Shown here piece by piece: positions 1-26,397 of a stretch of 64,000 nucleotides of DNA. Numbering within the stretch: the stretch's first letter is position 1; each line of letters opens with the position of its first letter. A model generated the notes under the pieces. The model did no database searches, had not been told where the DNA came from, and saw nothing but the letters and a program-made list of their open reading frames with translations. This DNA is from an uncultured bacterium (GTDB lineage Bacteria; Edwardsbacteria; AC1; EtOH8). The stretch spans positions 143-64,142 of the forward strand of contig CAZPNX010000001.1 in NCBI GenBank assembly GCA_964588285.1, read 5' to 3'. The position numbers and the translations under genes are program-made.

Positions 1-8
1 GGGAAGAG

Positions 9-1283
9 GTGGCCGGGCTGGTGATGGAGTTCAAGCCCAAGTTGGTAGTTGTGGATACCAGCACCCCCAGCATCTACAACGACGTCGAAGTGGCGGCCCG
101 GATAAAGGAATTGTCTCCGGATATCTTCACGGTCCTGGTAGGCCCGCATGTGTCAGCCTTGCCTAAAGAGACGTTGCAGCTGAACGCCAAAGTAGACGCC
201 GTGGCCCTCAAGGAATACGAGCACACCATGGCCGACCTGGCCAAGGCGCTGGAGGAGGGGAAGGACCCGGCCGCGGTTCCAGGGCTGGTATTGCAAAAGG
301 AAGGCCGGCTTATCACCACGCCGGCCCGCCCATTGGTCGAAGATCTGGACTCGATACCCTTCGTCAGCAAAGCATACAAGAGGCACCTGGATTATAAGAA
401 TTACTTCTACGCCCACAGCAAGTACCCCATCGTCACCATCATCACCGGGCGGGGATGTCCCTACCAATGCGTCTACTGCGTCTACCCCCAGGTGTTCTGC
501 AGCCACAAACCCAGGCTGCGCAGCATCCCCAACGTGGTGGACGAGATCGAGTACATCCTGCATGAGTTTCCCGACATCAAGGAGATCATGTTCGAGGACG
601 ACACCCTGACCTTCGACAAGAAACGCTGCCTGGAATTCTCCGAGGAGGTGCTGCGGCGCGGGGTAAAGTTCAAATGGTCGGCCAATTCCCGCTGCGATCT
701 GGACCTGGAGACCATGAAGGCCCTCAAGCGGGCCGGGGCCAGGCTGTTCTGCGTGGGGGTGGAGAGCGGCGACCAGGGCGTTCTGGATAGGATGAAGAAG
801 AGCCTGAAGGTGGAACGGGTGCGCCGGTTCTTTGCCGACGCCAAGCGGGCCGGGATAAAGATACACGGGTGCTTCATGGTGGGCAACCCGGGCGAGACCA
901 AGGAGACCCTGGAGACCACCCTGAGGTTCGCCATCGAGCTGGAGCCGGACACGGCCCAGTTCTTTCCCATCATGGTCTATCCCGGCACCGAGGCCTACGA
1001 CTGGGCCAAGCGAGAGGGGTATCTGACCACCGACAATTTTAGGGAGTGGCTGACGCCTGACGGCCTGCACAACAGCATCGTCAGCCGGCCCGGGCTTTCG
1101 AACACCGAGCTGGTCGAGTTCTGCGACCGGGCCAGGCAAAAGTTCTACATGCGTCCGTCCTATATCGCCAAAAAACTGGGGCAGAGCCTGACCGATTTTC
1201 AGGAGTTCAAGCGTCTGGCCAAGGGCGGTCTGACCTTGGGCCGCTATCTGTTCCGCGGCACCTATGGAAAGCCAAGGACATGA
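9..1283 (+). CDS. B12-binding domain / radical SAM protein (class B radical SAM; likely 5'-truncated by window edge)
   Basis: CxxxCxxC motif 'CPYQCVYC' after an N-terminal Rossmann-like B12-binding region. Frame is open to base 1, so the true start is probably upstream. Confidence 0.8.
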   Translation: MAGLVMEFKPKLVVVDTSTPSIYNDVEVAARIKELSPDIFTVLVGPHVSALPKETLQLNAKVDAVALKEYEHTMADLAKALEEGKDPAAVPGLVLQKEGRLITTPARPLVEDLDSIPFVSKAYKRHLDYKNYFYAHSKYPIVTIITGRGCPYQCVYCVYPQVFCSHKPRLRSIPNVVDEIEYILHEFPDIKEIMFEDDTLTFDKKRCLEFSEEVLRRGVKFKWSANSRCDLDLETMKALKRAGARLFCVGVESGDQGVLDRMKKSLKVERVRRFFADAKRAGIKIHGCFMVGNPGETKETLETTLRFAIELEPDTAQFFPIMVYPGTEAYDWAKREGYLTTDNFREWLTPDGLHNSIVSRPGLSNTELVEFCDRARQKFYMRPSYIAKKLGQSLTDFQEFKRLAKGGLTLGRYLFRGTYGKPRT

Positions 1284-2287
1284 AGGCTTCGGTCATCATA
1301 CCGGCCTATAACGCCGAGGAGTTGCTGCCCGAATGCTTGCGGTCGCTATCCGACCAGACCATCCCCAGGGACCAGTACGAGGTCATCGTGGTGGACGACG
1401 GGTCGACTGACGGCACGGCCGGGGTTGCCGGATCTTTTCCGGGCGTCAGGGTCATCAGCCAAAAGAACCAGGGGCCGGCGGCCGCCAGGAACCTGGGCGC
1501 CAAAGAGTCGAAGGGCGAGTTCATCCTTTTCACCGACTCCGACTGCGTGCCGGAGCGGGACTGGCTGGAGCGCATGCTGGAGCCGTTCGTCGATGACCAA
1601 AAGCTGGCCGGCGACAAGGGGCGGTACCTGACCAGACAGAAGGAGCTGGCGGCGCGTTTCGTCCAGGCCGAGTACCAAGACAAGTACCGCCTGCTGGAGA
1701 GGCACCGGGAGATTGACTTCATAGATACCTACTCGGCCGGGTTCCGCCGTGACGTCTTTCTACGCTACGGGGGCTACGACACCAGCTTTCCGGTGGCCTG
1801 CGCCGAGGATGTCGAGCTTTCGTACCGAATGTCCAACGGCGGGGAGAGGATGGCCTACGTGCCCGGGGCCGTGGTCTACCATCGCCATCCCGACCGCTGG
1901 GGGGCATATTTTCGCAAGAAGTACAAGTTCGCCTACTGGAGGATGCTGGCGGTGCGCAAGAACCCCAATAAGGTTATCAAGGATTCGCACACCCCCCAGT
2001 TGATGAAGCTGCAGCTGCTGCTGGCCCCGGCATCTCTGGCGGCGCTGGCGGCGGGTATCGCATTCAAACCTTTTCTTTGGCTGGCGGCAGCGCTGGCGTT
2101 TTTTTCCCTGATTTCCTCGATCCCTTTCGCATTGAGGGAGGGTAAAAGGGACGCGGCGGTTGGGCTGGCCGCTCCGGCCGCGCTTTTCGTGCGGGCCCTG
2201 TACCAGTTCGCCGGCGTGGCCGCGGGTACCGTGGATTCATTGCTGCTGGGAAGGCACAACCGACCGATAGGTGCGGCCAACGTCTAA
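1280..2287 (+). CDS. glycosyltransferase family 2 with C-terminal membrane anchor
   Basis: N-terminus 'VIIPAYNAEELL...VIVVDDGSTDGT...DSDC' (GT-A DxD-type fold signature); hydrophobic C-terminal helices; ATGA overlap with the upstream gene. Confidence 0.85.
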   Translation: MKASVIIPAYNAEELLPECLRSLSDQTIPRDQYEVIVVDDGSTDGTAGVAGSFPGVRVISQKNQGPAAARNLGAKESKGEFILFTDSDCVPERDWLERMLEPFVDDQKLAGDKGRYLTRQKELAARFVQAEYQDKYRLLERHREIDFIDTYSAGFRRDVFLRYGGYDTSFPVACAEDVELSYRMSNGGERMAYVPGAVVYHRHPDRWGAYFRKKYKFAYWRMLAVRKNPNKVIKDSHTPQLMKLQLLLAPASLAALAAGIAFKPFLWLAAALAFFSLISSIPFALREGKRDAAVGLAAPAALFVRALYQFAGVAAGTVDSLLLGRHNRPIGAANV

Positions 2288-23893: not shown

Positions 23894-25039
23894 ATGATTG
23901 AAAAAAGGCTTCTGACCTCGGAGTCGGTGACCGAGGGCCACCCCGACAAGATGTGCGACCAGATATCCGACGCCATCTTGGACGCCATCCTGGACAACGA
24001 CCCCAACGGCCGGGTGGCCTGCGAGACCCTGGTGACCACCGGGCTGGTGATGGTGGCCGGCGAGATCTCCACCTCGGCCTACATCGACATCCCGGGCCTG
24101 GTGCGGGAAACGGTCAAGGAGATCGGCTACACCGACGCCAAGAGCGGGCTGGACTACGAGACCTGCGGCGTCATTACCGCCATCCAGGAGCAGTCGTCGG
24201 ACATCGCCCTGGGGGTGAACACCGGCGGAGCCGGGGACCAGGGGATGATGTTCGGCTTCGCCTGCAACGAGACCCCGGAGCTGATGCCCATGCCCATCAT
24301 GATGGCCCACAAGCTCTGCCGCCGGCTGACCGAGGTGCGCAAGTCCGGGACCATGGACTACCTGCGCCCCGACGGCAAGTCCCAGGTGACGGTGGAGTAC
24401 GACAACGGGAAGCCCAAGAGGATCGACACCATCATCATCTCCGCCCAGCACCATCCCGACGTCCCCGAGGCCAGGGTGAAGAAGGACGTTGTAAAGCACG
24501 TCATCGCCCGGGTGGTCGACAAAAAGCTGATGGACGACAAGACCAAGATCCTGGTCAATCCCACCGGTCGCTTCGTCATCGGCGGGCCCCAGGGCGACTC
24601 AGGCCTGACCGGCCGCAAGATCATCGTCGACACCTATGGCGGGCTGGGGCGGCACGGCGGCGGCTGCTTCTCGGGCAAGGATCCCACCAAGGTCGACCGA
24701 TCGGCCGCCTACGCCGCCCGCTATATAGCCAAGAACGTGGTGGCTGCCGGACTGGCGGAGCGCTGCGAAATCCAGCTGGCCTATGCCATCGGCGTGGCCG
24801 ATCCGGTGTCCATCGCCGTCGATACCTTCGGCACCGGCCGGGCCGACGAGGCCAGGCTGTGCAAGGCCATCCGCCAGCACTTCGACCTGACGCCGCACGG
24901 GATAATTGACATGCTTAAATTGAAACGGCCCATCTACCGGCGGACCGCTGCTTACGGGCACTTTGGGCGTGAGGAGGAGGGCTTCACCTGGGAGAAGACC
25001 GACGTGGCCGCCAAGCTGAAAGCGGCGTTAAAGAAGTAA
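23894..25039 (+). CDS. metK: S-adenosylmethionine synthetase
   Basis: '[18 protein letters not shown]', '[12 protein letters not shown]', '[28 protein letters not shown]' are canonical MetK motifs. Confidence 0.95.
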
Positions 25040-25140
25040 CGAAAATTCACCACAAAGACACCAAGGCACTAATCCGGATAAATTTCGTATCTTTGCGCCT
25101 TGGTGGTTAACCCCGGTTCCAACCGGATTAGGAGATTTGA
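25040..25140 (+). ncRNA. candidate structured 5' leader of ahcY (pseudoknot-like; possible SAH-responsive element)
   Basis: Two interleaved perfect 9-bp helices: 25059-25067 with 25097-25105, and 25069-25077 with 25123-25131. The second overlaps the SD 'AGGAG' (25130-25134) of ahcY. Confidence 0.35.
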
Positions 25141-26397
25141 ATGAACTACGACGTCAAGGACCTGAAGCTGGCGGCCAAGGGGGCGGCCCGTGTCGAATGG
25201 GCCGAGCAGTTCATGCCGGTGCTGCGCACCGTCCGTTCACGGTTCGAGAAGGAGAAGCCGCTCAAGGGCATCAAGCTTTCGGCCTGCCTCCACGTGACCG
25301 CCGAGACCGCCAATCTGATGCGCACCCTCAAAGCCGGAGGGGCTGAACTGAGGCTGTGCGCCTCCAACCCGCTTTCCACCCAGGACGATGTAGCCGCCGC
25401 TTTGGTCAAACAATACGGCGTGCAGACTTTCGCCGTCAAGGGCGAGAGCCACGAGCTGTACTATAAGCACATCAACGCCGCCTTGGACCAGAGGCCCAAC
25501 GTCACCATGGACGACGGGGCTGATCTGGTGAGCGAGCTGCACACCAAACGGCGAGACCTGGTGAAAAACATCATCGGAGGGACCGAAGAGACCACCACCG
25601 GTGTCATCCGGCTGCGCAGCATGGAGAAGGCGGGCACCCTGGCCTTCCCGGTGATCGCGGTCAACGACTCCCAAACCAAGTTCATGTTCGACAACCGCTA
25701 CGGCACCGGCCAGAGCACCCTGGATGGGGTGCTGCGGGCCACCAACATTCTGTTGGCGGGTTCGATAGTGGTGGTGGCCGGTTACGGCTGGTGCGGGCGC
25801 GGCCTGGCCATGCGGGCCAGGGGCATGGGAGCCAACACCATTGTCACCGAGGTCGATCCGGTCAAGGCCCTGGAGGCGGTGATGGAGGGCTTCCGGGTGA
25901 TGCCCATGAAGGAGGCGGCCCGCATCGGGGATGTTTTCATCACCGTCACCGGGGATATCAATGTCATCCGGCCGGAACACTTCCGACTGATGAAGGACGG
26001 GGCCATCGTGGCCAACTCCGGCCACTTCAACGTCGAGTTGGACCTGGCCGGCCTGCGCAAGATCGCCAAGTCGCATCGCGAGGTGCGCGATTTCGTGGAG
26101 GAGTTTACCTTGCCCGGGGGTAAAAAGATCTGCATATTGGGGGACGGCCGGCTGATAAACCTGGCGGCCGCTGAGGGACATCCGGCCTCGGTCATGGATA
26201 TGAGCTTTGCCAACCAGTCGCTGGCGGCCGAAACCCTGGCCAAAAAGGGGAGGACCTTCCAAAAGAAAGTCTACGCCCTGCCGCCGGAGATCGACCGTCA
26301 GATCGCCAGCCTGAAGCTGAAAGCCATGGGGGTGAGGTTTGACGTCCTGACCCCGGAGCAGAAGAAATATCTGGCCTCATGGGAGATGGGGACCTAG
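25141..26397 (+). CDS. ahcY: adenosylhomocysteinase
   Basis: '[29 protein letters not shown]' NAD-binding motif; overall AhcY architecture. Confidence 0.95.

Follow-up and report, generated by a model that had tools for sequence, protein, structure and literature searches.

The first 26 kb of a 64,000-nucleotide stretch of DNA from an uncultured bacterium (contig CAZPNX010000001.1; the whole stretch is called the window) carry a polysaccharide locus that raises a simple question: why does one run of genes encode two initiating phosphoglycosyl transferases (PGTs) and two membrane proteins of the polymerase/ligase family Wzy_C? The initial annotation saw a single complete Wzx/Wzy-type pathway with duplicated functions. 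The genes are arranged in two modules, and the super-locus to which they belong spans 33 kb or more, of which the window holds only the right-hand three quarters. It is fairly probable that this super-locus comprises two tandem Wzx/Wzy-dependent assembly lines, each with its own initiating PGT: a capsule- or exopolysaccharide (EPS)-like module A and an O-antigen-like module B, whose genes at 4.8-16.8 kb form a GC-poor core. The large PGT that seemed to be a second starter ends module A, most of which lies outside the window.

Families were assigned with Pfam and NCBIfam profile models at the cutoffs of those models (a gathering score of 31.7 for Wzy_C, a cutoff of 27 for Bac_transf). Composition was followed as GC in 1-kb bins and, gene by gene, as GC at third codon positions (GC3), with nine core genes set against 19 background genes of the window. 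The locus was read against seven related loci (L084, L085, L089, L001 with L173 from one organism, L086 with L172, L170 with L174, and L171), and a JGI contig, L087, overlaps the window with a single mismatch in 14,794 shared bases. A scan of a genome collection with the PglF-like protein of the locus found L001 as the only close relative, alongside 79 loci of unrelated phyla at 42-51% identity, and a metagenome scan with the large PGT gave a single close locus, L089. The nearest species-level genome is 'bacterium UBP2_UBA4780', of an unclassified candidate phylum, whose PglF-like protein is 83% identical.

As first annotated, 22 successive open reading frames (ORFs) occupy the + strand from 9 to 26397, with ATGA overlaps at four junctions (1280, 14283, 16761, 19889) and a TTGA overlap at one (5532); intergenic gaps do not exceed 15 nt throughout 9-21676. 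This co-directionality is unremarkable, because only two assigned genes of the window lie on the other strand and the cumulative GC skew climbs across nearly its whole length. The profile searches bore out the gene families named in the initial annotation, the flippase being sub-threshold on models of the MOP family. In the list below, the two Wzy_C proteins are designated Wzy_C-I and Wzy_C-II, glycosyltransferases are abbreviated GT and S-adenosylmethionine SAM.

9-1283, + strand: B12-binding radical-SAM enzyme, HpnJ-like, cut at its 5' end by the window edge (Radical_SAM and B12-binding by Pfam; HpnJ model 379 bits against a cutoff of 578; GC3 0.83)
1280-2287, + strand: GT2 glycosyltransferase of module A (Glycos_transf_2 132 bits; 79% identity in L089)
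2271-3374, + strand: GT4 glycosyltransferase of module A (Glycos_transf_1 and Glyco_transf_4; 64% identity in L089)
3376-4794, + strand: large polytopic PGT of WcaJ/WbaP type, last gene of module A (Bac_transf 243 bits, with CoA_binding_3)
4804-5535, + strand: short Wzz-like protein of 243 amino acids, constant 5' edge of module B (Wzz 29.2 bits against a cutoff of 25.5)
5532-7373, + strand: GT4-SAM methyltransferase fusion, core (Glyco_trans_1_4 102 bits, Methyltransf_11 28.8 bits; 62-69% identity in L084, L085 and L089; GC3 0.53)
7384-8661, + strand: multi-pass membrane protein with about 11 hydrophobic segments, probable divergent Wzx-type flippase, core
8669-10648, + strand: AsnB-type glutamine amidotransferase, core, likely a sugar-amidating enzyme (Asn_synthase 230 bits, with GATase_7; TIGR01536 428 bits against 267)
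10618-11898, + strand: GT4 glycosyltransferase, core (Glycos_transf_1 73 bits)
11889-13208, + strand: Wzy_C-I, core-specific Wzy-like membrane protein (Wzy_C 43.5 bits)
13210-14286, + strand: GT4 glycosyltransferase, core (Glycos_transf_1 147 bits)
14283-15512, + strand: Wzy_C-II, lineage-conserved, at the 3' edge of the core (Wzy_C 87.8 bits)
15487-16764, + strand: GT4 glycosyltransferase, WcaI-like (WcaI-family model 209 bits against a cutoff of 276; 67-69% identity in L001, L084 and L085), opening the block colinear with UBA4780 DNA
16761-17315, + strand: small monotopic PGT of 184 amino acids (Bac_transf alone, 220 bits; one N-terminal hydrophobic helix)
17319-18011, + strand: SAM-dependent methyltransferase of the conserved 3' block (Methyltransf_25 and Methyltransf_11; 72-75% identity in relatives)
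18015-19892, + strand: membrane-anchored UDP-N-acetylhexosamine (HexNAc) 4,6-dehydratase of PglF/WbpM/CapD type (Polysacc_synt_2 403 bits, with CoA_binding_3; four N-terminal hydrophobic segments; 82-83% identity in L001, L084 and L085)
19889-21085, + strand: DegT/PglE-type sugar aminotransferase (DegT_DnrJ_EryC1 429 bits)
21101-21676, + strand: left-handed beta-helix acyltransferase, PglD/NeuD-like by a weak match (Hexapep 76.5 bits; NeuD_NnaD 82.8 bits against a cutoff of 160.8; 89-92% identity in close relatives)
21733-22803, + strand: bifunctional phosphoglucose/phosphomannose isomerase (bact-PGI_C 169.5 bits; NF006426 331 bits against 295)
22800-23777, + strand: sugar-1-phosphate nucleotidyltransferase, last glycan gene (NTP_transferase 125.6 bits; the ORF opens at 22728, with ATG 22800 as the likely start from the ATGA overlap and from independent gene calls of 325 amino acids)
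23894-26397, + strand: metK and ahcY, housekeeping methyl-cycle genes (all three S-AdoMet_synt domains; AdoHcyase)

The upstream continuation of the locus accounts for the large PGT. The window edge truncates the first ORF, and the start of the locus lies 6.6 kb or more farther upstream; in L087 the radical-SAM protein is complete (487 amino acids, at 6445-7908; 88% identical in L089 and 74% in L172). The L087 genes 5' of window position 1 encode a polysaccharide co-polymerase (PCP; Wzz and GNVR domains; its visible part lacks a kinase domain), another Wzy_C protein (the third), an unambiguous Wzx (Polysacc_synt), and methyltransferase, GT4 and GT9 enzymes. The order of module A is PCP, Wzy_C, Wzx, methyltransferase, GT4, GT9, B12-radical-SAM enzyme, GT2, GT4 and large PGT, and the window contains only the last four of these genes (1-4794). 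In the relative L174, whose PCP and Wzy_C are 53% and 33.5% identical to those of L087, an outer-membrane exporter with Poly_export/SLBB domains opens the module and the large PGT closes it. The gene orders of L087 and L174 thus make the large PGT the closing gene of a preceding capsule/EPS-like module; it is not an additional starter for the core. We infer that module A is of capsule/EPS type and that an outer-membrane polysaccharide exporter (OPX) is present in this genome. Two features of module A deserve mention in their own right. L087 998-6464, directly 5' of the window, is a second AT-rich island that holds the Wzy_C, Wzx, methyltransferase, GT4 and GT9 genes; its GC is 0.28-0.39 and its GC3 0.24-0.39, against a genome GC of about 60%. 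The equivalent region of L089 differs and is likewise AT-rich. The HpnJ-like B12/radical-SAM enzyme is kept (74-88% identity) together with the GT2 and the large PGT in L089, L173 and L172, and it might perform unusual carbon-skeleton chemistry on a lipid-linked sugar.

Module B (4804-23777) begins with the short Wzz-like protein, the GT4-methyltransferase, the Wzx-like protein, AsnB, a GT4, Wzy_C-I, a second GT4 and Wzy_C-II, and continues with the WcaI-like GT4, the small PGT, a methyltransferase, the dehydratase/aminotransferase/acyltransferase trio, the isomerase and the nucleotidyltransferase. The two modules are separate because GC3 breaks at 4794/4804, because L171 has module B alone and because both PGTs keep their catalytic motifs. 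In L171, module B comes straight after thrS and no large PGT is present; module B therefore stands alone with its small PGT, and the claim that 1-26397 is one complete pathway does not hold. An Asp-Glu catalytic dyad and a PRP nucleotide-binding motif are named as features of monotopic PGTs (PMC10186338), and the window enzymes have both (SLDELPQLFNV and GPRPE). The large PGT scores above the cutoff of the equivalog for WcaJ-type undecaprenyl-phosphate glucose phosphotransferases (TIGR03023 WcaJ_sugtrans, 469 bits against 411), with CoA_binding_3 at 58.8 bits, four N-terminal hydrophobic segments, a GC3 of 0.78 and 83-94% identity in close relatives; the small PGT is 82-86% identical there. 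The presence of two different PGTs, at 3376-4794 and 16761-17315, was thus correctly recognized at the outset, although 'duplicated' is not the word for them: their catalytic domains are about 46% identical, and the two Wzy_C proteins show no similarity to each other by BLASTP. A recent gene duplication as the source of either pair is rejected on these grounds.

The small PGT had been described as PglC-type. This applies to its architecture only. It scores alike on PglC (137 bits) and on the WbaP catalytic domain (135 bits), and the fingerprint of enzymes specific for UDP-N,N'-diacetylbacillosamine (diNAcBac) is absent. That fingerprint consists of a GLLLP loop, an aromatic box (Y118/Y122/W150/F154/F197) and a C-terminal extension of about 14 residues (Anderson et al. 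2023, PMC10186338). In the small PGT the loop aligns as G66-P-L-L-A70, after which it has two residues more than PglC; against PglC 8E37, one of the five box positions, that of Y122, is aromatic, with L, M and L occupying others; and the chain stops at residue 184, short of the F197 position and without the extension. A diNAcBac-specific PglC is accordingly rejected. Judging from these motifs, the substrate is probably not diNAcBac despite the pgl-like neighbors, and the adjacent dehydratase, aminotransferase and acyltransferase point to a reducing-end sugar of the 4-amino-4,6-dideoxy-HexNAc type.

The related loci share one frame: the large PGT (in all but L171), a short Wzz-like protein, a variable core, an orthologue of Wzy_C-II, 0-3 genes, the small PGT, the dehydratase/aminotransferase/acyltransferase trio, the isomerase, the nucleotidyltransferase, metK and ahcY. 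Six of the seven relatives have the large PGT immediately next to module B, and the rest of the frame is present in each large-PGT relative that extends far enough downstream. The genes between the Wzy_C-II orthologue and the small PGT encode GTs and, in L170, a DUF8201 protein and an epimerase. The Wzz-like protein has hydrophobic segments at both termini, matches the Wzz model with its N-terminal part only, and is 22-48% identical to the proteins at the same position in L084, L086, L170, L171 and L173. L084, L085 and L089 keep the gene order of the window, with core proteins 48-69% identical as against 64-96% in the flanks. Different cores sit in the same frame in L001/L173, L086/L172, L170/L174 and L171. 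In UBA4780 (L001), with a flank identity of about 82%, DNA colinearity with the window (blastn) begins only at 15532, and the core consists of a 469-amino-acid Wzy-like protein, a Wzx, a methyltransferase and three GT4s; the cores of L086, L170 and L171 differ from this one as well. A GT9 gene of L086 (11340-12428), between the Wzy_C-II orthologue and the small PGT, has a GC3 of only 0.24 and looks like a very recent foreign insertion.

At the far end of the frame, metK immediately follows the glycan genes in each relative that reaches there (L084, L085, L086 and L170), with ahcY after it wherever the locus extends. In the window both are preceded by gaps of about 100 nt (116 and 101 nt) and have GC3 values of 0.90 and 0.85. 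These two genes, counted with the glycan cluster at first, are conserved housekeeping neighbors outside the glycan pathway. A promoter and terminator scan of 21-27 kb found no more sites than in shuffled sequence and is uninformative on the 3' end of the operon. The window locus encodes four SAM methyltransferase domains and one radical-SAM enzyme; a link to the adjoining metK and ahcY may be coincidental.

The second apparent duplication concerns the Wzy_C proteins, both of which exceed the gathering score at the positions first reported, and here the relatives reveal a constant and a variable partner. Wzy_C-II belongs to one orthologous family (35-59% identity, near full-length alignment) that lies 0-3 genes 5' of the small PGT in every examined locus reaching that far. 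The other Wzy-like proteins form mutually unrelated groups that follow the core type. For Wzy_C-I, 15 homologues were detected, the nearest beyond same-core relatives being 29-35% identical and including proteins of Bacteroidota and Geobacter. The nearest outgroup homologue is in a Bacteroidota locus (L169 1233-12636) with two Wzy_C and two Wzx genes; the pairing of Wzy_C genes within a polysaccharide locus is therefore not confined to this lineage.

On the Pfam Wzy_C model the Wzy_C-II family scores 66-88 bits versus 18-44 bits for the variable Wzy-like proteins of module B. Wzy_C-II also has weak matches to PEP_O_lig_1, RfaL and TfpM (the last at 18 bits), and Wzy_C-I only a weak one to TuaE. 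On the RfaL equivalog NF012031, Wzy_C-II reaches 36.3 bits against a cutoff of 277 and Wzy_C-I has no match; a score below the cutoff is expected for a distant phylum and lowers the claim of WaaL membership, not the functional inference. PglL_A (PF15864) and Wzy_C_2 gave no match at E values up to 10 in Wzy_C-II, three of its orthologues, Wzy_C-I or the upstream Wzy_C. A sequence search of Protein Data Bank (PDB) chains with both proteins returned no meaningful match. Among structures, the AlphaFold2 model of Wzy_C-II (mean predicted confidence, pLDDT, 89.5) best matches the ligase WaaL (7TPG; E 1.6e-9, template modeling score, TM, 0.64), as does that of Wzy_C-I (pLDDT 80.6; TM 0.59-0.64). 7TPG is the only strong PDB fold match for both; the SEDS proteins FtsW and RodA come next, and neither a Wzy or PglL structure nor a significant transporter is among the matches. 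Wzy_C domains above threshold and a WaaL-like fold exclude transporters, a family into which the two proteins might have resolved.

Residues R259, H308, H310 and N311 are invariant in the Wzy_C-II family, and Wzy_C-I has a comparable pair, R302 and H346. The spacing of R259 and H310 is 51 residues, close to the 50 of R288-H338 in Escherichia coli WaaL and equal to that of R298-H349 in PglL (PMC3643930). A constant partner beside a variable one fits best with Wzy_C-II as a predicted WaaL-like glycan ligase and Wzy_C-I as the putative repeat-unit polymerase of module B.

On this assignment, module B would work as follows. The dehydratase/aminotransferase/acyltransferase trio would make a UDP-sugar of the 4-amino-4,6-dideoxy-HexNAc type, which the small PGT would load onto undecaprenyl phosphate. 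The GT4s, the methyltransferase and the amidotransferase would assemble and decorate the repeat unit, Wzx would move it across the membrane, and Wzy_C-I would polymerize the units under the control of the short Wzz. Wzy_C-II would then attach the polymer to an acceptor, lipid A-core being the most likely one. Several features indicate that the organism makes lipopolysaccharide (LPS), which favors this acceptor: LptG and LptF are encoded 0.3 kb downstream of the locus, two GT9 heptosyltransferase-like genes lie at 57-59 kb, and a GT9 gene stands beside the Wzy_C-II orthologue in L086.

Several observations weigh against this account. An OPX was seen in L174 only, and the organism's own contig stops about 0.7 kb upstream of L087, before the OPX position. 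The window Wzx is below threshold on every flippase model (MurJ 20.4 bits against a cutoff of 27.4), as are its orthologues in L085 and L089 (Polysacc_synt 23.5-23.7 bits against 28.2). The tight packing on one strand from 9 to 23777 means that the modules may be co-transcribed and could cooperate. Both Wzy_C models fit 7TPG about equally, so the fold does not separate ligase from polymerase. Finally, the identity of Wzy_C-II tracks the core type, being 37% in L001 and 59% in L084, both with flanks of about 82%, as that of a polymerase would also do.

The last two points would suit a reversal of roles, in which Wzy_C-II is the polymerase, kept by the small PGT because the units share a reducing-end sugar, and Wzy_C-I either ligates or is a further polymerase that forms another kind of linkage; the Bacteroidota locus with two Wzy_C and two Wzx genes is likewise compatible with it. 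The ligase would then be unrelated among close relatives with the same LPS machinery, unlike the known behavior of WaaL. Moreover, the Wzy_C model, which is seeded with ligases, gives Wzy_C-II a far better score, and Wzy_C-II also matches RfaL weakly, whereas Wzy_C-I matches only the putative polymerase TuaE. The reversal is therefore unlikely, if worth keeping in view. Quite unlikely, too, is that the Wzy_C-II family represents an unrecognised lineage-specific terminal glycan transferase, either a protein O-oligosaccharyltransferase (O-OTase) without PglL_A, TfpO or PglS signatures or an enzyme ligating the module B glycan to that of module A.

A protein O-OTase of the recognized kind would have module B chains or single units decorate, for example, type IV pilins whose genes lie 20 kb downstream. 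Typical pgl systems are known to combine a small PGT with a 4-amino-dideoxy-HexNAc pathway, two pilin genes and pilus machinery lie at 35-48 kb, and Wzy_C-II has its very weak TfpM match. The Wzy_C domain itself is common to WaaL and O-OTases (PMC3643930). The initial annotation had likewise offered a protein-linked second glycan. Of its two options, two glycans or one hybrid product, the former is the better. The PglL_A signature of a protein-linked glycan is absent: PglL_A and Wzy_C_2 are without a match in Wzy_C-II and three orthologues even at E = 10. The gene shares its polysaccharide locus with genes for a second Wzy and a Wzz-like protein, whereas PglL genes reportedly carry the PglL_A motif and lie outside LPS loci (PMC3643930). 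The pilin genes are not adjacent, and LptFG and the GT9 genes point to LPS. Such an enzyme is most unlikely here.

The GC-poor core noted at the start is real. GC in 1-kb bins is 0.43-0.54 at 5-17 kb versus 0.56-0.61 at 1-5 kb and 0.54-0.65 at 17-27 kb. The nine core genes (4.8-16.8 kb) have a mean GC3 of 0.538 (range 0.475-0.614), against 0.797 (sd 0.074) in the 19 background genes (z = -3.5; Mann-Whitney p = 1.4e-5). The 5' edge is abrupt, GC3 falling from 0.78 to 0.475 at 4794/4804, and the 3' edge is graded (0.52, 0.58, 0.64, 0.65, 0.72). In relatives with the same gene order the core is less AT-rich (GC3 0.62-0.71 in L084, 0.73-0.84 in L085, 0.66-0.79 in L089), and the window core appears to be an allele that either came from a background of lower GC or resided in one for a long time. 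Both marks of a horizontally exchanged, serotype-specific core are present, namely a deviant composition and replacement or excess divergence between conserved flanks, as the initial annotation had anticipated. The segment is the exchangeable, serotype-like part of module B. The core edges show no integrase, transposase or tRNA, and the likely route of exchange is homologous recombination in the conserved flanks.

Weak codon selection on poorly expressed membrane and GT genes, with no horizontal exchange, would also lower GC, and would agree with the little or no GC3 dip in the same-order cores of L089 and L085 and with the lack of mobility genes or a tRNA at the boundaries. It is a highly doubtful explanation: unrelated genes physically replace the core in equally close relatives (e.g., L001/L173), soluble core enzymes are as AT-rich as the membrane proteins (AsnB GC3 0.495), the break at 4794/4804 is abrupt, and the upstream island is richer still in AT (GC 0.28-0.39). 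As for cooperation of the modules in one hybrid product, with two PGT-started glycans joined outside the cytoplasm by Wzy_C-II, the unbroken co-directional packing from the radical-SAM gene to the nucleotidyltransferase and the large PGT adjoining module B in six of seven relatives speak for it, but it is very improbable indeed given module B without a large PGT in L171, the separate PCP or Wzz, Wzx and Wzy of each module, and the break in GC3 and conservation exactly between them.

Beyond the locus, a 1873-amino-acid protein with an SprA_N domain (29159-34780; 47 bits) adjoins the divergent lptF-lptG pair. The region 35408-45904 encodes three tandem PilB/MshE-type ATPase paralogues (564, 574 and 590 amino acids); next come PilT-like and PilC-like genes and PilS/PilR-like sigma-54 activator genes. 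Two type IV pilin genes (46221-46763 and 47361-48359) share the N-terminus GFTLIELMIVVVIIGILAAIA and an SGQ end and lie in a GC-poor patch (0.48-0.51); the second lies in the C-terminal half of a 332-amino-acid ORF. The two adjacent GT9 (heptosyltransferase-family) genes at 57253-59236 have a slightly lowered GC3 (0.67) and are probably LPS core genes. A tRNA (59298-59369) is directly followed by a fluoride riboswitch (59378-59436, 48 bits), which precedes a gene of the Na_H_Exchanger family (region to 60686), not crcB or CLC-F.

The arrangement recalls several known systems. In Enterobacteriaceae, colanic-acid or capsule clusters (wca/cps: wza-wzc...wcaJ or wbaP) and O-antigen (rfb) clusters are adjacent. 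As there, two Wzx/Wzy clusters adjoin, the first of OPX/PCP type with a large WcaJ/WbaP PGT and the second a GC-poor, serotype-variable cluster of O-antigen type between conserved flanks. In contrast to the enteric loci, the second cluster here starts with a small monotopic PGT and not with WecA or WbaP, has a ligase-like Wzy_C inside it, and follows a module whose PCP is without a kinase domain in the part seen and whose OPX is seen only in a relative, in an uncultured candidate phylum. The wbp locus of Pseudomonas aeruginosa, as generally known, has wzz at its 5' edge, a low-GC, serotype-specific center with wzx, wzy, GTs and an AsnB-like amidotransferase (WbpS), and, at its conserved 3' end, WbpM (a membrane-bound dehydratase homologous to PglF) together with the initiating transferase; all of this resembles module B. 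Unlike the window, P. aeruginosa initiates with WbpL, a polyprenyl-phosphate N-acetylaminosugar-1-phosphate transferase (PNPT), has waaL elsewhere and lacks an adjoining second module. With the pgl loci of Campylobacter and Neisseria, module B shares a small monotopic PGT beside a dehydratase, an aminotransferase and an acyltransferase, and a Wzy_C-family terminal transferase nearby. It differs from them in the missing diNAcBac fingerprint and PglL_A motif, and in Wzz-like and Wzy proteins that point to a polymer. In Porphyromonas gingivalis, two different polysaccharides, O-LPS and A-LPS, are attached to lipid A-core (PMC3684754). Two lipid A-core-linked glycans are thus one possible fate of the products of modules A and B, a parallel drawn at the level of products and not of genes; the OPX of L174 suggests instead that the module A product is exported as capsule or EPS.

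The answer to the opening question is ordinary in kind and does not challenge current understanding. The apparent duplication of the starter and of the polymerase/ligase is an effect of the window edge, half of one module lying outside; functions look duplicated because two modules are juxtaposed and because module B has an extra, ligase-like Wzy_C family. The comparison defines that family as a conserved one, always beside the small PGT. The rules known from enteric bacteria and Pseudomonas also hold in this UBP2-like candidate-phylum lineage, far from those models: capsule and O-antigen loci stand in tandem, frames are conserved, and AT-rich cores can be exchanged.

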